From a virus: 35,363 nucleotides of DNA. Every line of letters starts with the position of its first letter. Position 1 is the stretch's first letter. The notes beneath the pieces were generated by a model. The model was not told where the DNA came from. It saw only the letters and a list, made by a program, of their open reading frames with translations, and made no database searches. Positions 5,071 through 34,190 of this stretch are shown piece by piece. Position numbers and translations under genes: made by a program. The DNA lies in UHGV virus genome UHGV-0299546, one strand, 5' to 3'.

Positions 5071-5190
5071 GTAACCACTATGTACACACAAAAAAACCGC
5101 TTGCCATGCCGCAATCAGTCAGGTTACATTTCCGCTGCACCTCATAAAACGGGTGCCGGGATTTCCACCCCGCTGACAACTACAGCGCAC

Positions 5191-5210
5191 AACCGCGCCA
5201 GCGGTTTTTT
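5191..5210 (+). terminator. Candidate intrinsic terminator
   Basis: 6-bp stem AACCGC/GCGGTT with GCCA loop (5191-5206) followed by T7 (5204-5210). Confidence 0.4.
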
Positions 5211-5229
5211 TGTGCGTACTGTATCGCCA

Positions 5230-5390
5230 CGTCTTTTTCGCACACGAATTATGGTGGGGCGTACGGGGCCGACTTCGGTCGGGCCGGGTTCTGTAGTTGC
5301 CGGTTGTGGAAACCCTGTACGTCTCACCACCCCGAGTTTTCCACCTCTGGATGGTGAGTTTTCAAAACTTGCAACTACAGAGGCCACACC
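5230..5390 (+). other. GC-rich structured non-coding region (candidate sRNA or cis-regulatory leader)
   Basis: Hairpin GGCCGAC-TTCG-GTCGGGCC at 5265-5285 (UUCG tetraloop); inverted repeats CTCACCA/TGGTGAG (5323-5329 / 5351-5357) and CTGTAGTTGC/GCAACTACAG (5291-5300 / 5371-5380), the latter adjoining the RBS of the 5391 ORF. Confidence 0.3.
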
Positions 5391-27044: not shown

Positions 27045-27539
27045 TCAAAACAGCCCTTTAACGGAGCTGGCCGCGCTGTTAAGGGATGATGTGACCTTAT
27101 CTTTGAAGCCGGACAGCATATCACTGAACGATGAGGATTGCAGGCGCTCCCGCAAATCCTCATCACAGCGTTCAAGGGTCAGTGAAAATTCTATCTTTTT
27201 CGCCTTACCGTAGCGATCAAACTCGGAGCGGGTCGTATTCGTTTCAGTCAGTACATACATGCCGTAAATCTGCCCGACACCATCAATCAGAGGCCAGGGG
27301 CGTCCTGTATATGCCTGCGTGGTCAGCAACGAAAGCGACACTTCGCCACCTGTAATTTCAGGATAAAGCACACCAGAAAGAACGATGCGATCATCACCTG
27401 CACCGATATACTGCCAGCTTGCTGAACGGTTAACGCGTTCATTTTTCACATGCCGCCAGCTTTTGTTTTGCTGTAACTGCTGATGCGGCAGCGTGCGCAG
27501 CTCAAAAACAAACATGCCGTAGATCATCATCATGACCAT
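27045..27539 (-). CDS. U: Tail protein gpU
   Basis: 164 aa, P2 U-like by position and length; start among a run of Met codons is uncertain. Confidence 0.85.
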   Translation of the reverse strand: MVMMMIYGMFVFELRTLPHQQLQQNKSWRHVKNERVNRSASWQYIGAGDDRIVLSGVLYPEITGGEVSLSLLTTQAYTGRPWPLIDGVGQIYGMYVLTETNTTRSEFDRYGKAKKIEFSLTLERCDEDLRERLQSSSFSDMLSGFKDKVTSSLNSAASSVKGLF

Positions 27540-27545
27540 GACTCC

Positions 27546-30362
27546 TCAATCTTTATCGTAAAAACTGCCACGCCCGGCACGGGCGCGCCGTTCCATTTCT
27601 GCCCTGACCATTTCACCGACCAGTTTCGCCAGTTCGCGGGGATTCTGTGTAACAACGTTATGCAGATGAACATGAATTTCACCGCCAAATCCGGAGGCAA
27701 CAGGCTCCCGGTTACGGGAAGTTGCAGGAACTGATGCCACTGGAGATCGTATGGCCTCTGCCACCGGGCGGGAGCTGGCCGCAACAACAGGGACCAGCGC
27801 CGGAGGCAGCGGAGCCGGAACCACAGGTGTGATATTAATTGCGGGGGCAGGCTTACTGACCTGCGCAATCTTCCGCTCCTGCCACTCCCCACGAACGGCA
27901 AGTGCGCGGGGCAGGTTCTTAAAGACAATATCGCCGGGGCCAATACGTTTTTTCGTCTCATCAACCAGCTTACCTGTGTTATCAGCAATTTTGCTGAGTC
28001 TGCGTAGCGTACCGGTATTGCTGTCTGTGAGCGGTTTATTGTCTTTGGTTTTATCACCTCCGGTGCCATTGCCATTTTCCGCAGACTTCGGCGGATTGAT
28101 TTTCGCAATGTCTCCCTGAAACAGAGCAACCTTGTCCTGAAGAATGGCCGCACGCTGTGCGTCTTCGATTTTCTTTCTCGCCCTTTCCGCTTCATCCGGA
28201 AGCACACCGAGTTTTTCAAGTATCCACGCCAGCGTATCCAGCAACATTTTTGCGGGCGTCAGAACAAGCTGTAACGCACCGCCAAGAACGTTACCGAATA
28301 TCTCGCCAGCACTGGTACATTTATCCAGCGTTTCCTTGCTGGACTCCATCGGTGACAGCAGCGATTTAAACCAGTTAAACACCTGACTTATCCCGCTTCC
28401 GATTGCGTCAAAAACAGGACCAAACCGTTCAAAGGTTTCGCGTAACGGGGCCAGCCGCTCCATAATCCCGCTGAACACCCCGGCATAAAACGCCTTGATG
28501 GGTTCCCAGTATTTCCAGATGAGAACTGCCGCAGCCACAAACGCAGCAGCAATCAATCCGACCGGGCTGAACAGCGCCCCGATAGCGCCCCCCAGTAACG
28601 AAACGGAACCCGTCACCATTCCCCATAGTGCTGGCAGGAGCCTGACAGCATTCATTGATCCGGTCAGGAGAGAAAAACCAAGACGCAACGTGGCCAGCTT
28701 CCCGTGAAGCACTCCAATAACCAGCGACAACGAGCCAACCGTTGCAGTCATTGCCAGCAGCGCACCGCCTGCTATCAGTAACTGGCGCGTCAGTACCGGA
28801 TGGGCCTGTGCCAGCGCCGTCACCTTTGAGACCACCCGCGTGAGCCACTGCGTGACAGAACGCAGCGGACCATCAATCAGATCTGCAATGCGGATACGCA
28901 GCCCTTCCCATGCACTGCCGAGTGATTTCAGGTCGCCATCAAGGTTATTGGCCATAACCTTTGCCGTGCGTTCAGCCTCACCGCGTGCGCCCTCAAGTTC
29001 TTTTCTCAGTTTGGGCAGGGAGCCGTCACCCGCCGCATCAACGAGAGCCATAAACGACGTGAAAGCCTCTTCCCCGGCAATGTCCTTAAAGAACGATACC
29101 CGGTCAACTTCCCCGTATTTACGGGTGGCTTTATAAAGGTCGGCCAGCACATCTTCCATCGGGCGCATTTTGCCGTTCGCATCAGAGACGGACACACCCA
29201 GCTCTTTCAGCGCTTCTGCTGCCGCCTTTGGCGGTGATGCCAGACGAGCCAGGCTGGCACGCATTGCCGTCCCGGCATCACTCCCTCTGATACCCATATT
29301 CGCCAGCACGCCCGCCATCGCTGCGGCCTGCTCCAGCGATATTCCCAGCTTACCCGCCACCGGACCTGCATATTTCATGGTTTCGCCCAGTGCGCGAAGG
29401 TCAGTGTTAGTACGGGTAAACACTGCTGTAAGCGTGTCACCGACCCGGTCCATCTGGTCAGCGGAGAGGCCGAACTGCGTCAGGATATTTGAGCCAATAT
29501 CTGCCGTCTCGCCAAGGTCCATACCGCCAGCCGTTGCCATGCTCAGCACGCCGGGAAGCGCAGCCTGAATGGCCTGCGGTGTGAAGCCAGCCATTGCCAG
29601 AAATGCCTGCCCACTGGCGGCATCGCCTGCGGTGAACTGCGTTTCAGAGCCAAGTTTTAACGCCTGCTCACGCAGCGCCTTAAACTGCGGGCTGTTTTTG
29701 TCGATTCGCGTCAGTGCCTGAACGCGGGACATCTCTTTCCCGAACCCGATCGCAGGCTGCAAAAAACGCCCGGCAGCATAGCTGCCAGCCGCTGTCGCAC
29801 CAATTGCCAGCGCACCACCTGTTTTCAGTTTTCCCGCGGTTTCCTGCGCGCGCGAATACCGCTCACGCGCACGTGTTACACGCGCAAGCGCCTGCCGTTC
29901 GCGTTCAAGCTGGTTGTTGTACTGTTCGGTGCGTCTGATGGCCTGCTGGATGGTGTTATCGCTGCCTGTCAGGGAAATGCCGTGGCGTTTCAGCTCTCCG
30001 CCAAGCTCCCGCATTTTCTGAATTTCCCGTGTACGCGATTCATTCAGGCGTTCAAGCCGGGTGCTTAACTGCTGCATCAGCTTTTGTTGTTTTTCGCTGA
30101 GCACTGTACCCGTGCGTTGTAACTGATTAAGGGCGTTAAGCTGGCGTCGTGCTTTCACGATGCCCGCATCCGCTTTACTGACAGCGTCACGGGCGCGCTC
30201 AAATGAACGCGCCTGACGCTCGAGATTTTTGATCGCCCCCTGCGTTCGCTGGATGGAGTCACCAAACTGCCCCATCAGGCGGCGGGCGTTTTCGGCAGGC
30301 CGGGTCAGCCTGTCAACGGCGCTGAAAGCGACCCGGATATCAAGAGTCTTCATTGTCTGCAT
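27546..30362 (-). CDS. T: Tail tape measure protein gpT
   Basis: ~940 aa, Ala/Gly-rich with coiled-coil N-terminus and hydrophobic central region; start set at ATG 30362 (GTG 30389 or ATG 30353 possible); overlaps the end of E'. Confidence 0.9.
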   Translation of the reverse strand: MQTMKTLDIRVAFSAVDRLTRPAENARRLMGQFGDSIQRTQGAIKNLERQARSFERARDAVSKADAGIVKARRQLNALNQLQRTGTVLSEKQQKLMQQLSTRLERLNESRTREIQKMRELGGELKRHGISLTGSDNTIQQAIRRTEQYNNQLERERQALARVTRARERYSRAQETAGKLKTGGALAIGATAAGSYAAGRFLQPAIGFGKEMSRVQALTRIDKNSPQFKALREQALKLGSETQFTAGDAASGQAFLAMAGFTPQAIQAALPGVLSMATAGGMDLGETADIGSNILTQFGLSADQMDRVGDTLTAVFTRTNTDLRALGETMKYAGPVAGKLGISLEQAAAMAGVLANMGIRGSDAGTAMRASLARLASPPKAAAEALKELGVSVSDANGKMRPMEDVLADLYKATRKYGEVDRVSFFKDIAGEEAFTSFMALVDAAGDGSLPKLRKELEGARGEAERTAKVMANNLDGDLKSLGSAWEGLRIRIADLIDGPLRSVTQWLTRVVSKVTALAQAHPVLTRQLLIAGGALLAMTATVGSLSLVIGVLHGKLATLRLGFSLLTGSMNAVRLLPALWGMVTGSVSLLGGAIGALFSPVGLIAAAFVAAAVLIWKYWEPIKAFYAGVFSGIMERLAPLRETFERFGPVFDAIGSGISQVFNWFKSLLSPMESSKETLDKCTSAGEIFGNVLGGALQLVLTPAKMLLDTLAWILEKLGVLPDEAERARKKIEDAQRAAILQDKVALFQGDIAKINPPKSAENGNGTGGDKTKDNKPLTDSNTGTLRRLSKIADNTGKLVDETKKRIGPGDIVFKNLPRALAVRGEWQERKIAQVSKPAPAINITPVVPAPLPPALVPVVAASSRPVAEAIRSPVASVPATSRNREPVASGFGGEIHVHLHNVVTQNPRELAKLVGEMVRAEMERRARAGRGSFYDKD

Positions 30363-30869
30363 TCCCGCTGCGAAGTGCCGCCCGCTCACGCCAGCTAACC
30401 ACTTCGCCGGGCGTCATCATGAAGATTTCGGCGGGCGACCAGTTAAAAATAACGGCAATATCTGCCACAAAGTCTTCTATGTGCTCAAAGCACACAACCG
30501 TGATCAGGCTTCCGTCGCCTGTTCGTTCTTCCCGCCAGAGTCCGCACCGCTCAAAAAATTTACGGCAACCACACATAACTGAATAAAGTCACAGGATGCC
30601 ATTTTTTTGATCGTCACTTCATCCAGTCGCGGTGATGTCACGCGTGACAGCAGCGTAAACATGGATTCCGCTTTCAGATTCAGCACATCAGACAGCGACA
30701 AATCTCGCAGAGATCCAGCCTGCTCAATAGCTCCGGTGATCTCCACATACGTGATTTTTTCGCCGCTTCGCTCAATTGGTTGGGTAAGTTTTACGCCACG
30801 CTCACTGGTTTCTTTCACAGTGTCAGCAACGACCGTGTTTTCGTTATCGATGTTTTTCGTCTCTTTCAT
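30340..30869 (-). CDS. gpE+E' fusion made by programmed -1 ribosomal frameshift (about 175 aa)
   Basis: The E frame contains the heptamer T_TTT_TTG (minus strand, 30558 to 30552); the -1 frame is open from there to the stop at 30340; same arrangement as lambda G/GT and P2 E/E'. Confidence 0.6.
30504..30869 (-). CDS. E: Tail assembly chaperone gpE
   Basis: VTSPRLDE...FLSG resembles P2 E. Confidence 0.85.
   Translation of the reverse strand: MKETKNIDNENTVVADTVKETSERGVKLTQPIERSGEKITYVEITGAIEQAGSLRDLSLSDVLNLKAESMFTLLSRVTSPRLDEVTIKKMASCDFIQLCVVAVNFLSGADSGGKNEQATEA
30552..30558 (-). other. Slippery heptamer T_TTT_TTG for the E to E' -1 frameshift
   Basis: Hand-translated: zero frame ...V N F L S G..., -1 frame ...F F E R C G L W... 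Confidence 0.6.
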
Positions 30870-30923
30870 CAGGAAACTCCTTTCAGTCAGAGGCGACGCA
30901 CTGCGCCGCCTGCATATTACTTA

Positions 30924-31436
30924 TCAGCCAAGCCCAAGCGCGGAACGGATGCGATCGGGCACAATGTCCTTGCCGTCCTTCCGGTAAATGAAGTTCAGCA
31001 GGTCAATCTCCCACAACGGGCGATCGTTAACACTCAGCTTGTAGTAGGTGTTTTTAATGGCGTAAGTGTGTGATGTGGCTTCGCCCTGTTTGGCTTCCCC
31101 CATATCAATTTCCGTCACACGTCCGCGCATTTCGACTTCATACAGGTCGCTTTCTGCATCGGTGTAGTATTCACCCGCAAAACGCAGCAGCGTGCCGTCA
31201 ATCGTGCCGCCATACTTAAGGAACAGCTCACGAACTGCGCCCCCCATGACAAAGCTCGCATCAAGCGCGGAGTCGTCCAGACCGAGATCAATACTTACCG
31301 CACCCATCATGCCGCCCCCCCGGTAGCTGTCGGTTTTGCGCGTCAGTTTGGGCAGAGTGACGGACGTCACCTTACCCACTTCGTTTTCACCATCCACAAA
31401 CAGCGTAAAAAAGCGAAGATGTTTTGGCACAGCCAT
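30924..31436 (-). CDS. FII: Tail tube protein gpFII
   Basis: 170 aa, P2 FII-like by length and position. Confidence 0.92.
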   Translation of the reverse strand: MAVPKHLRFFTLFVDGENEVGKVTSVTLPKLTRKTDSYRGGGMMGAVSIDLGLDDSALDASFVMGGAVRELFLKYGGTIDGTLLRFAGEYYTDAESDLYEVEMRGRVTEIDMGEAKQGEATSHTYAIKNTYYKLSVNDRPLWEIDLLNFIYRKDGKDIVPDRIRSALGLG

Positions 31437-32620
31437 CAGGCACCTCCCAGCACCGCAAATGCGGGTTCAAAGTATTCATCAGTAAACGTCTGGTAAAGCT
31501 CCATGTCTTCCAGTGGCGGAACGGGCGTATATTTGTAGCGAATACGCACACGCCCCTGACGTAAATCCGTGGTGCTGTTATCCACCACGTCATACCAGCA
31601 CTCCGCACCAATCAGTTTCCCGGCAGTAACCAGTGAATCCAGTTTTGCCCTGATGGCACTGATAACATCCTTCACGTTCGCAGGCGTCAGTGGACTGTCG
31701 ATGGTTTCAAACTGCGCTTCCGCAATTGAATCAGCCAGCACCTGTGCGGTTCGGGTATACACCTCAAAGATGTAGGCGTTCGTTTCCGGTGTGCGGTTGC
31801 CCCAGAAGCGGAACCCGTTGCGACGAATAATGGTCGTGATTTCTTTGTTGTTAAGGCTGTTGGCATCACTGTCTTCGGCCTGCAACGACCAGAACACATG
31901 CCTGGACATCCCCAGCACATTTTTAACCGGAACGTTGGACAGCGATTTGTGCCAGCCCTGCTCATGGTCAATGTACGCACGAAGGCCGCACGCATAGGCA
32001 GGCGCGGGGAACGTTTCGTTTTTGCCACTTTTCGGGTTGTAGGCGATGAAGTCCGGCCATAAGAGCATCACCTCACGTTCGTTGAATTTCTGGCGGTAGG
32101 TAATCGCCTCAGCCATCGTGTTACAGCCGTGACATGAGGCATACACAAACGCGCGCAGTTTACCCGCAATCACGCACAGGGATTTTGTTACCGCCTCCGT
32201 GTCCAGCTCCGGCGCGGCCAGAATACGCGGACGGTATCCGATGCTTTCATCCTGCTCTGCAACAAGCAGCGCATACATCCCCGTATAGCTGCCGTCAGAT
32301 TCAGAACCACCGATAACCAGTTGATCCTGCGTTTTTCCGTCTTCTTCTTTGTGTTCAGCCACGCGAACGACGATCACCTTTGTGCTCACCTGGTCTGCGA
32401 TGGCCTTAAGCGCACGATAAAGCGTCCCCGTTGTCCCGCATTTTCCCAGCACGTCATTGACGCGGGTCAGCAGTGTGGGCTTGTTCAGCGGGAACAGCTT
32501 CGCGTCCGCATCATCCGCCGTTGCCACGATACCGATAACGCTGGAATCAACATCGTTAATCGCTGTTACCAGGTCGGTATTTTCCGTAACACGGGCACCA
32601 TGAAAACGAGTTTCACTCAT
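31436..32620 (-). CDS. FI: Tail sheath protein gpFI
   Basis: 394 aa; resembles P2 FI in several blocks (FPLNKP, KLRAF, WPDF, QGWHK.LSNV, RRNGFRFWGNRT, YTRTAQV, YTPVPPLE). Confidence 0.95.
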   Translation of the reverse strand: MSETRFHGARVTENTDLVTAINDVDSSVIGIVATADDADAKLFPLNKPTLLTRVNDVLGKCGTTGTLYRALKAIADQVSTKVIVVRVAEHKEEDGKTQDQLVIGGSESDGSYTGMYALLVAEQDESIGYRPRILAAPELDTEAVTKSLCVIAGKLRAFVYASCHGCNTMAEAITYRQKFNEREVMLLWPDFIAYNPKSGKNETFPAPAYACGLRAYIDHEQGWHKSLSNVPVKNVLGMSRHVFWSLQAEDSDANSLNNKEITTIIRRNGFRFWGNRTPETNAYIFEVYTRTAQVLADSIAEAQFETIDSPLTPANVKDVISAIRAKLDSLVTAGKLIGAECWYDVVDNSTTDLRQGRVRIRYKYTPVPPLEDMELYQTFTDEYFEPAFAVLGGA

Positions 32621-32777
32621 AGCTTCAGCCCCTTGTATCCGTTAAATGATTCGGCAACAATCATCACCCACCACGCGCGCAATCTCACCCCTGCGCCATT
32701 CTCCCGCCACGGCGACAACAAAAAGCAGTAACCCCCTCCGCACGCACATGCGACCATGCCACACAGGGAGGGAGCAG

Positions 32778-33887
32778 ATGACCGACACCACCATGCAATT
32801 GCTCAGTCAGGGCACAGACCCCGTGAAAATGCCGGATTTTGATATTCTCGCGGAGGGTAAAACGCTGTCAGGCGTGGCAGAACGCCTGATGAGCCTGTCA
32901 CTGACCGACAACCGGGGATTTGAGGCGGACCAGCTCACCATCATGCTGGATGATGCGGATGGTCAGTTGCAGCTACCGCAACGGGGCGCGCGCCTGACGG
33001 TTCTCATTGGCTGGAAGGGAGAACCGCTGACAGAAAAAGGCACTTACATTGTTGATGAAATCGCTCACGAAGGACCGCCGGACAGGCTGACTGTTTCAGC
33101 CAGAAGCGCAGATTTTCGGGATGAATTTAACGTTAAACGTGAGGTGTCCTGGCATGATGTGACCGTTGAGCGTGTGGTATCCGCCATCGCTCATCGGTAT
33201 GGTCTGAAACCGCAAATCAGCGAAATGCTGATGGATATCGAAATCGACCACGCCGACCAGACCGAAGAAAGCGACATGTCCTTCCTTACGCGCATGGCGG
33301 AAATGCTGGGCGCAATCACCACGGTAAAAAGCGGCAATCTGTTATTCATCATGCCAGGTGGTGGCGTGAACGCACAGGGCCAGCCGTTGCCCTCGTTCGC
33401 CATTACACGCAGCAGCGGCGATCGCCATCAGTTCCGCATTGCTGACCGCGAAGCGTATACGGGGGTACGCGCCTACTGGCTTGATCTTAATTACGGGAAA
33501 AAGAAAAAAGTCAGCGTGAAACGCCGTAAACCGCCAAAACCCAAAAAGGAGAAAAGCAGCAGCCGTGAAGGTGATTATATGGAAGGCGCGGAAGGCAATG
33601 TGTTTGTGTTACGCAAGACTTATCAGAACGAGCAGGCAGCAAGACGCGCAGCGGCGGCAAAGTGGCAGCAACTACAACGCGGAGCCGCATCATTCTCCAT
33701 CACGCTGGCGCGTGGACGTGCAGAACTCTACCCCGAAATGCATGGCACGGTAACAGGATTTAAAAGCGAGATTGATAATCAGGACTGGATCATTGCAAAA
33801 GCCGAGCACACCATTGATAACAGCGGCTTTACCACGCAGCTTGAGCTTGAGGCAAAAATCCCGGAATGGATAGCGGAAACAGAGTGA
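32778..33887 (+). CDS. D: Tail protein gpD
   Basis: ATG 32778 with GGGAGGGAG RBS; P2 D-like by length and position. Confidence 0.88.
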   Translation: MTDTTMQLLSQGTDPVKMPDFDILAEGKTLSGVAERLMSLSLTDNRGFEADQLTIMLDDADGQLQLPQRGARLTVLIGWKGEPLTEKGTYIVDEIAHEGPPDRLTVSARSADFRDEFNVKREVSWHDVTVERVVSAIAHRYGLKPQISEMLMDIEIDHADQTEESDMSFLTRMAEMLGAITTVKSGNLLFIMPGGGVNAQGQPLPSFAITRSSGDRHQFRIADREAYTGVRAYWLDLNYGKKKKVSVKRRKPPKPKKEKSSSREGDYMEGAEGNVFVLRKTYQNEQAARRAAAAKWQQLQRGAASFSITLARGRAELYPEMHGTVTGFKSEIDNQDWIIAKAEHTIDNSGFTTQLELEAKIPEWIAETE

Positions 33888-33929: not shown

Positions 33930-34190
33930 ATGTTCCGTTGTCCGCTTTGTGGCGCATCTGCCCGTATCCGCACCAGTCGTCCGGAAAATGATTCAAACAC
34001 CGTGCGGCAAAAGTATTACCAGTGTAACAATCTGGAATGCGGCGTATGCTTCTCAACACTGGAAGCTTTCCATAAATTCACATCAAAACACGCCTCCGGC
34101 GTTCACTCATCAGAAGGTATCCCGTGGCATGATCTGCCAGCTTCACACAGGGGAAACAATCAGATGAGTTTGCCTTTATCTCAGAATTAA
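33930..34190 (+). CDS. ogr: Late transcription activator, Ogr/Delta zinc-finger family
   Basis: MFRCPLCGASARIRTSR...YYQCNNLECGVCF resembles P2 Ogr, including the four Cys ligands. Confidence 0.88.
   Translation: MFRCPLCGASARIRTSRPENDSNTVRQKYYQCNNLECGVCFSTLEAFHKFTSKHASGVHSSEGIPWHDLPASHRGNNQMSLPLSQN

Follow-up and report, generated by a model that had tools for sequence, protein, structure and literature searches.

The lambda G/GT and P2 E/E+E' pairs are the established models for the roles of phage tail assembly chaperones. In P2, E+E' arises by a -1 frameshift at TTTTTTG within the FETUD operon (Christie et al., 2002, J Bacteriol 184:6522, as given in PMC3091744 and PMC3931495); E' there lacks a ribosome binding site, and the product on record is the fusion, annotated as an essential tail protein (PMC3931495). 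In the P2 genome record, NC_001895, E+E' is likewise entered as essential and as made by a -1 frameshift at TTTTTTG. In lambda, G is joined to T by a shift that is also -1, with G_GGA_AAG as the heptamer (work of Levin et al., 1993, and of Xu et al., 2004, 2013 and 2014, summarized in PMC5009743).

The window analyzed here is a stretch of 35,363 nucleotides (UHGV virus genome UHGV-0299546) from a phage or prophage of the P2 family that is like P88 (Xuanwuvirus, Peduoviridae), and in this region it is 99% nucleotide-identical to Escherichia phage P88. The late operon, FI-FII-E-E'-T-U, is encoded by the minus strand, with gene E and a -1 open reading frame placed between the tube gene FII and the tape measure gene T. 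The last 14 nt of E' overlap T, which starts at ATG 30353 (Table 1). Gene E matches PHROG 103 "tail protein" (9e-34) and, weakly, Pfam PF10109 Phage_TAC_7, the chaperone domain of P2 E and Mu gp41 (residues 26-106; 14.8 bits, with the cut-off at 25; E=0.03), a profile against which P2 E scores 47.8; this weak match spans positions 2-78 of the 79 in the profile and stops exactly at slip-site residue 106. Homology of E to P2 E is established separately by BLASTP (3e-25) and PHROG 103. The E' part matches PHROG 1756 (2e-39), and Pfam PF06528 is found in the fusion with 45.4 bits (cut-off 23, E=5.5e-12) over profile positions 1-36 of 37. E codons 1-106 together with the 70 codons of E' make up a 176-residue E+E'. 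A search by sequence for solved structures found none, and no exact match to an Ogr-type TGT-N12-ACA site was present upstream of FI. A terminator-like hairpin within E' (30468-30452) was taken as chance, the search giving 2 hits against 1.0 expected.

Table 1. Features of the E-E' locus and its neighbors (positions in the window)
Feature	Position	Strand	Details
Gene T, tape measure protein	27546..30353	-	PF10145 PhageMin_Tail, 3.9e-59
E' part, -1 frame	30340..30552	-	70 codons, ERCGLW...NEDS; G 30552 read twice; stop TGA 30342-30340
Pfam PF06528 Phage_P2_GpE	30361..30468	-	Fusion residues 135-170, in the -1 frame
Gene E, tail assembly chaperone	30504..30869	-	121 aa; ATG 30869, AAGGAG Shine-Dalgarno; stop TGA 30506-30504
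Slippery decamer A_AAT_TTT_TTG	30552..30561	-	E codons 103 (third base) to 106; position kept in 118/118 distinct relatives
-1 frame TGA	30589..30591	-	Upstream bound of the -1 ORF
A7 run	30602..30608	-	E codons AAA AAA A-TG; out of X_XXY_YYZ register; -1 stop 30591-30589 downstream
Gene FII, tail tube protein	30924..31436	-	PF04985 Phage_tube, 7.5e-47; directly upstream of E
Gene FI, tail sheath protein	31436..32620	-	PF04984, PF22671, PF17482; first gene of the operon

The original prediction was that a -1 shift at T_TTT_TTG, in the register of E and with the -1 frame open as far as the stop at 30340, joins E to E'. The register and the open frame are both confirmed in the sequence. Minus-strand positions 30558-30552 read TTTTTTG in the register T_TTT_TTG (X_XXY_YYZ), with base 30558 as the last letter of E codon 104 (AAT) and codons 105 and 106 being TTT (30557-30555) and TTG (30554-30552); from 30558 the -1 frame reads FFERCGLW...NADNEDS up to its TGA. 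This -1 ORF occupies 30340-30588 and overlaps E by 82 nt. Because of the TGA at its upstream bound, a productive shift is confined to 30588-30507. The A7 run is excluded as a shift site, as the original prediction had also held, since the -1 stop would end any shift there at once and the register is also wrong. A second canonical in-register heptamer, A_AAT_TTT at 30561-30555, overlaps T_TTT_TTG, and these two are the only in-register heptamers in the whole of E. The joining of E to E' is supported, and the naming of T_TTT_TTG as the site is supported only in part, given the overlapping A_AAT_TTT. After TTG, E continues for 15 further sense codons (SGADSGGKNEQATEA) before its stop. This had been called unusually far, at about 16 codons, a figure that includes the stop; the distance is typical of the clade, in that, P2 and Wphi apart, the E stop lies 15-22 codons past the site in every relative sampled, and it exceeds the mean of 26 nt given for SEA-PHAGES (PMC10885494).

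When 26 long ORFs of the window are scanned, an XXXYYYZ heptamer in register is found at 0.32% of codons, a rate that gives a chance of about 8%, for a single sequence, of finding at least one in the 27-codon overlap. Thus, the heptamer in one sequence alone is only suggestive. What takes the slip site beyond chance is its conservation, as each of the 118 distinct relatives has an in-register heptamer, of varying sequence, at this Phe codon, even where protein identity to the window falls to 31-33% (P2). A tblastn search with the fusion returned two frame-shifted pieces in Peduoviridae from many hosts. Just past the slip site, the -1 frame has an amino-acid identity of 0.58 and the 0 frame one of 0.37, and nucleotide conservation is lowest at third positions of the -1 frame; from the slip site on, the overlap thus behaves in evolution as coding sequence of the -1 frame. 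In one relative from IMG/VR (L093), the run is T7 and E+E' is read without a change of frame. Four further relatives (L010, L011, L012 and L092) have E or E' disrupted by an indel, presumably through sequencing error or prophage degradation.

Synteny, homology to P2 E+E', the GpE domain, the conserved slip position, the -1 coding constraint and the lack of a Shine-Dalgarno sequence for E' all point to the joining of E and E'. We consider it about 90% probable, reasoning from sequence, that a low-frequency -1 slip on the decamer A_AAU_UUU_UUG, unaided by a stimulator, yields E+E' in this P88-like phage. Most ribosomes translating E would stop at 30504 and give the 121-residue E, and a small fraction would slip back by one nucleotide on the decamer (30561-30552) and read the -1 frame to 30340, giving the 176-residue E+E', which would have its first 105-106 residues in common with E. 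Two routes may be envisaged: tRNA-Asn and tRNA-Phe could slip on AAU-UUU (A_AAU_UUU), giving the junction ...VNFFER, or tRNA-Phe and tRNA-Leu could slip on UUU-UUG (U_UUU_UUG, the P2 site), giving ...VNFLER. Tandem slippage at U_UUU_UUG would leave the tryptic junction peptide MASCDFIQLCVVAVNFLER, and slippage at A_AAU_UUU or a P-site-only slip would leave MASCDFIQLCVVAVNFFER; peptide MASCDFIQLCVVAVNFLSGADSGGK would represent unshifted E. By analogy with the known systems, the E domain would coat the tape measure protein T, the rare E' domain would recruit the tube protein FII and so start tube polymerization, and neither E nor E+E' would end up in the virion.

The slip would proceed with neither an RNA hairpin nor an upstream Shine-Dalgarno stimulator. 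The suggested search for a downstream stimulatory structure yielded no supported or conserved structure by folding or by RNAalifold: the proximal 62 nt downstream of the site fold worse than shuffled sequences (z=+1.64), folds of 62, 112 and 241 nt give distant hairpins and a fortuitous A7:U6 pairing and nothing else, and RNAalifold on 14 diverse relatives gives 0 conserved pairs downstream. An upstream Shine-Dalgarno stimulator is missing in the window clade (anti-SD duplex -2.7 kcal/mol); such a sequence is present in P2, where its spacing is too short for a stimulator, and in a few T6-only relatives, and it is absent from the large KSP20-like group that has T6G only. Stimulated bacterial -1 PRF (dnaX, IS911 or IS3 type) is recognized by a Shine-Dalgarno-like element upstream and/or a hairpin or pseudoknot 5-9 nt downstream, and neither was found here. 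With no stimulator, the frequency is expected not to exceed a few per cent and to be set by the heptamer alone, and the efficiency of E+E' production could be very low.

The two overlapping heptamers differ in what is known of their efficiency. In E. coli, motifs of the H_HH.U_UU.Y class rank with the most efficient, and the chief rule is that re-pairing in the A site be cognate (UUU to UUU), whereas U_UUG is a weak A-site motif, giving 1.8-3.6 fold over background even with a pseudoknot, and U_UUU_UUG falls outside the top efficiency class (PMC4066793). A sister Xuanwuvirus lineage (phiSM, 520873 and P884B11), about 87% nucleotide-identical over this region and including an active phage, phiSM (PMC6456863), reads GTA AAT TTT ATG, with A_AAT_TTT as its sole heptamer and no T6G; an exact 66-mer of this allele occurs in 524 complete E. 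coli chromosome or plasmid records. Reipiviruses have C_CCT_TTC alone, in the same register as A_AAT_TTT. Because A_AAT_TTT is the only heptamer in the sisters and belongs to the more efficient class, either heptamer could, by sequence, serve at the slip codon here. It is nearly as likely as not that P88-like phages slip at A_AAU_UUU, with the Phe codon in the A site or with P-site-only slippage of tRNA-Phe, rather than at the U_UUU_UUG of P2, the P2 family toggling between two overlapping registers at a fixed slip codon with at least one retained. Among 30 distinct contexts, the class with neither heptamer has 0 members versus about 2.8 expected; this complementarity of the two heptamers is suggestive only, and the comparison is confounded by phylogeny. 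If this reading were true, the textbook description of a conserved T6G would be incomplete, and the decamer in the window would be a redundant dual site.

It is also possible, though less likely than not, that the shift occurs solely at T_TTT_TTG as in P2, giving the junction ...NFLER and leaving A_AAT_TTT irrelevant. T_TTT_TTG is the experimentally established site of P2, which lacks an upstream alternative, and T6G or T6A is the sole heptamer in many relatives, among them KSP20-like and SEN5-like phages and P2; however, the sister allele and the Reipiviruses dispense with it, and the efficiencies measured in E. coli favor the upstream register.

A different origin of E' would be its own initiation, as a separate protein of 51 residues from GTG 30495 or 78 residues from ATG 30576; a separate small protein is what GenBank and RefSeq annotate. 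The -1 frame does contain these start codons, and a separate CDS named "tail protein" or "GpE family phage tail protein" is annotated in P88, PhiR44_2, 520873, P884B11 and PGAP-annotated E. coli genomes. However, neither start has a Shine-Dalgarno sequence (-3.5 kcal/mol for the GTG and -2.1 kcal/mol for the ATG, with -8.2 to -13.8 kcal/mol for E, FI and FII), and no promoter-like site for E' was found. Furthermore, the -1 coding constraint begins at the slip site, upstream of the GTG, with a conserved ER.GDG linker; the ATG is replaced by GTG or missing in relatives; and in P2, as described above, it is the fusion that is on record. Separate initiation is thus very unlikely.

Transcriptional slippage, in which RNA polymerase adds one U within T6 and the edited mRNA encodes E+E', would suit a homopolymer run of six T, and the relative with T7 shows that the outcome would be coding-competent. 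However, E. coli RNA polymerase slips appreciably only from about 8-9 residues or more, a length that T6 falls short of, and relatives keep the heptamer with only T3 (C_CCT_TTC) or T4 (A_AAT_TTT_ATG), so that it is the codon register that is conserved and not the run length. These short runs rule out polymerase slippage as a general mechanism, and for the window we regard it as extremely unlikely. That the heptamer is a chance or non-functional remnant and only E is made, as the single-sequence chance of about 8% and the lack of a stimulator might suggest, deserves next to no credence, given the 118 relatives, the intact Pfam domain and the constrained -1 ORF.

Overall, frameshifting on the decamer makes E/E+E' here an ordinary, known P2-family tail-chaperone -1 frameshift, and the understanding of tail assembly and of frameshifting is unchanged. 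The main value lies in the annotation of a very common prophage family, as the E-E'-T region occurs in 1374 of 5426 complete E. coli genomes. In every annotated record examined (four Xuanwuvirus phages, P88, PhiR44_2, 520873 and P884B11, and 11 sampled E. coli genome rows), E' is listed as a free-standing 51-residue ORF and not as a ribosomal-slippage join; E' is unannotated in the phiSM record, and the paper on P88 does not mention a frameshift. Since E' is annotated as a separate ORF, the 176-residue E+E' is missing from proteomes derived from those records. In addition, the A_AAT_TTT_TTG, A_AAT_TTT_ATG, C_CCT_TTC and T6G-only alleles, which occur in otherwise homologous contexts lacking stimulators, provide a natural test bed for the motif-efficiency rules of E. 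coli.

Finally, this locus can be set beside known systems. The signals of dnaX and of IS911/IS3 reach tens of per cent frameshifting; they share with the locus a tandem-slippage heptamer in E. coli, but the upstream Shine-Dalgarno sequence and/or downstream hairpin or pseudoknot that they carry is absent here. Lambda G/GT resembles it in lying between the genes for the major tail protein and the tape measure, and presumably in the logic of a fixed chaperone ratio, but there is no detectable sequence similarity, the heptamer is another one, and the tail here is contractile, with the tube protein FII and not gpV as the presumed partner of E'. The phages phiSM, 520873, P884B11 and the Reipivirus ST16-OXA48phi5.4, whose E-E' has 52% protein identity to that of the window, have the same genes, the same slip codon and 15-17 codons to the E stop, but differ in having only the upstream-register heptamer (A_AAT_TTT or C_CCT_TTC) and no T6G. 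From P2, the window differs in having an E of 121 rather than 91 residues, with an N-terminal extension of about 20-25 residues; a Pfam TAC_7 score for E under the cut-off; an FI-U block inverted relative to D and ogr; the extra overlapping A_AAT_TTT, for which P2 (GTC GGT TTT TTG) has no counterpart; no SD-like AAGGTGG just upstream of the slip site; and an E that runs 15 codons past the site versus 6 in P2, because of a 10-codon indel directly after the slip site (a gap in P2). In common with P2, T_TTT_TTG lies at the same Phe-Leu codons, E/E' is flanked by FII and T, E' extends over the start of T, a downstream hairpin is lacking in both, the E stop is at the homologous position, and the 176-residue fusion is collinear through the junction with P2 E+E' at 31% identity (BLASTP E=3e-25).

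The locus is confirmed as a P88-like phage's version of the frameshift already known for P2-family tail chaperones, and the original prediction of a -1 frameshift joining gene E, a tail assembly chaperone, to the -1-frame ORF E' is right in substance, with a dual heptamer and an ordinary stop distance as corrections. TTTTTTG lies at 30558-30552 on the minus strand, where 30558 closes codon 104 (AAT) and codons 105 and 106 are TTT and TTG, giving the predicted T_TTT_TTG register needed for tandem -1 slippage. As had also been predicted, the -1 frame from this site, FFERCGLWREERTGDGSLITVVCFEHIEDFVADIAVIFNWSPAEIFMMTPGEVVSWRERAALRSGNADNEDS, is open to the TGA at 30342-30340. Upstream it is closed by a TGA at 30591-30589, and therefore no productive shift is possible at the A7 run (30608-30602; codons AAA AAA A-TG), which is out of heptamer register and had rightly been set aside. 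Because the codon preceding the T run has GTA before it (GTA AAT TTT TTG), a second canonical in-register heptamer, A_AAT_TTT (30561-30555), is present, sharing four bases with the first; E contains no other in-register XXXYYYZ motif. Such motifs occur in register at 0.32% of codons in 26 long ORFs of the window, and about 8% is the chance expectation for a heptamer in the 27-codon overlap; given this chance rate, the slip-site evidence from the window by itself is suggestive, not decisive.

Coordinates of E and neighboring genes
Feature	Coordinates	Strand	Remark
D	about 32780-33887	plus	
ogr	33930-34190	plus	
FI, sheath	31436-32620	minus	
FII, tube	30924-31436	minus	PF04985
E	ATG 30869 to TGA 30506-30504	minus	121 aa; AAGGAG seven nt before ATG
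T, tape measure	ATG 30353 to 27546	minus	PF10145

The 801 bases around the site are 99% identical to Escherichia phage P88 (Peduoviridae, Xuanwuvirus) and 86-87% identical to phages 520873, 503458, P884B11, and Citrobacter phage phiSM, and over the window's first 25 kb, about 80% of the sequence has a P88 match, at 96.6% identity. In the conceptual 176-aa fusion of E and E', residues 135-170 match Pfam PF06528 Phage_P2_GpE (45.4 bits; cut-off 23), and the E and E' parts match PHROG 103 and PHROG 1756, respectively. E alone scores 14.8 bits against PF10109 Phage_TAC_7, below the cut-off of 25, with nearly the whole profile covered and the match ending precisely at the slip codon, residue 106. 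The fusion aligns with P2 E+E' (BLASTP, E=3e-25, 31% identity), collinear across the V-x-F-L junction; the P2 record gives E+E' as a joined CDS ("-1 frameshift; essential tail protein") with the shift directly after TTTTTTG. Work citing Christie et al. 2002 describes P2 products of 91 aa (E) and 142 aa (E+E'), a P2 E' without a ribosome binding site, and the absence of any structure downstream of the P2 shift (PMC3091744, PMC3931495).

Among 118 distinct E-E' sequences from two scans of IMG/VR plus GenBank phage records, all 118 have one or more in-register heptamers at the homologous Phe codon, none lacking both registers. In addition to the window type, with both heptamers, there are relatives with A_AAT_TTT only (GTA AAT TTT ATG; phiSM, 520873, P884B11), C_CCT_TTC only (Reipivirus), T_TTT_TTG or T_TTT_TTA only (P2, Wphi, SEN5-like, KSP20-like), and C_CCT_TTT plus T_TTT_TTG. 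Therefore, the slip codon is fixed, and the heptamer switches between two registers spaced by one codon. Among complete E. coli chromosome and plasmid records, 708 contain an exact match to the window-type 66-mer and 524 to the phiSM type. In one relative, L093 (IMGVR_UViG_2565956773_000017), the slip site (about 1440) reads T7 rather than T6, so that E and E' run together as a single uninterrupted ORF (...IVPFFDAYGLW...) and E is not encoded separately; L122, nearly identical to L093, has T6. The T7 is probably a homopolymer sequencing error; if real, L093 would represent a naturally "pre-fused" mutant.

The proposal of T_TTT_TTG as the site holds in that this heptamer is present and in register, but the overlapping A_AAT_TTT is also available, and exclusive use of T_TTT_TTG in the window is rather doubtful. 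In P2 (GTC GGT TTT TTG), U_UUU_UUG is functional without an upstream alternative. Because phiSM, reported as a spontaneously active phage (PMC6456863), has A_AAT_TTT only, this heptamer alone appears sufficient for the shift. A systematic study in E. coli places H_HH.U_UU.Y, a class that takes in A_AAU_UUU and C_CCU_UUC, among the most efficient motifs, and the U_UUG tetramer just 1.8-3.6 fold over background (PMC4066793). The products of the two slips differ at residue 106 only, which would be Leu after a P2-type slip and Phe after an A_AAU_UUU slip or a P-site-only slip.

Independent initiation of E' matches database annotation: E' is a separate 51-aa CDS with no ribosomal-slippage join in four of four Xuanwuvirus records (NC_026014 P88, PV340564 PhiR44_2, NC_049344 520873, NC_049391 P884B11) and 11 of 11 sampled E. 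coli genome rows from RefSeq, under the names "tail protein" or "GpE family phage tail protein," and is not annotated at all in the phiSM record. This explanation is contradicted, as no SD or promoter-like site was found for E' and constraint on the -1 frame begins upstream of the annotated start. Over the 45 nt past the slip site, 14 diverse relatives have a mean pairwise amino acid identity of 0.58 in the -1 frame versus 0.37 in the E frame, and nucleotide conservation is lowest at the third position of the -1 frame; therefore, this frame is translated from the slip site, not from the databases' GTG 30495. Transcriptional slippage is contradicted by relatives with T3-T4 runs only, which still keep register, and a chance heptamer by the 118/118 conservation. 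Of 5426 complete E. coli genomes, 1374 carry the region, and the practical point is that the E+E' join is missing from public annotations of a very common prophage. A stretch of 34 nt in the E'/T overlap (30385-30418) matches at 100% a spacer of E. coli GmM066 (NZ_CM183652.1), in a type I-E CRISPR array adjoining cas1e-cas2e; CRISPR immunity against this phage family is therefore present in at least one E. coli strain.

E had also been described as continuing unusually far past the site, which does not hold: its 15 sense codons past TTG fall within the 15-22 of all sampled relatives save P2 and Wphi (6 each). Alignment A1 places a 10-residue gap in P2 right behind the junction, and in the two phages E terminates at homologous codons of E' (...GDGS-LI in the window, ...ELGA-V in P2); therefore, the longer run is a clade-wide 30-nt linker indel, not an anomaly of this phage. 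The mean reported for actinobacteriophage tail chaperones, 26 nt, is shorter than the window's distance (PMC10885494).

With regard to stimulators, the 62 nt after the site fold worse than shuffled controls (z=+1.64), longer downstream folds add only distant hairpins, RNAalifold found no conserved base pairs among 14 relatives, and the 27 nt upstream of the window site hold no SD-like sequence (-2.7 kcal/mol). We infer an unstimulated shift of low frequency; absence of stimulators is likewise reported for P2 and Burkholderia P2-like phages (PMC3091744). In P2 (L005 2160-2185), in contrast to 30562-30588 of the window, an SD-like AAGGTGG stands upstream of TTTTTTG, with its end 4 nt from the heptamer and a duplex energy of -8.9 kcal/mol with the anti-SD. 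SD-like upstream sequences also occur in several other T6-only relatives, the KSP20-like T6G-only group being an exception, whereas neither the window clade nor any relative that carries an X_XXT_TTY heptamer has them.

From the FII stop to the E start there is a 54-nt spacer, which contains a GC-rich hairpin without a T-tract, AGGCGGCGCAGTGCGTCGCCT (about 30890-30920, minus). This hairpin may serve in mRNA processing or stability, or may act as an attenuator setting E below tube levels. The T gene (27546-30389, minus) has in-register GGGAAAA and TTTTTTG heptamers at codons 185 and 208, probably by chance. Elsewhere, 5137-5211 and 5247-5334 (plus) match the Rfam isrK Hfq-binding RNA (63.6 bits) and C4 antisense RNA (80.5 bits) above gathering score, which makes a P1/P7-style C4 antisense module within a P2-family phage.

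Finally, the T start lies 14 nt within the E' end (30340-30353, minus) and has a weak SD (-4.3 kcal/mol); in P2, it also overlaps the E' end, by 8 nt. Ribosomes finishing E terminate about 150 nt upstream of the T start, and, speculatively, T translation could be coupled in part to termination of rare frameshifted ribosomes. D and ogr diverge from FI over about 160 nt, and this divergent region has no exact TGT-N12-ACA Ogr-type site. Overall, gene order (window 27045-33887) is not that of the P2 FETUD operon, as FI, FII, E, the -1 ORF E', T, and U follow one another on the minus strand with D and ogr on the plus strand, and phage P88 shares this layout.
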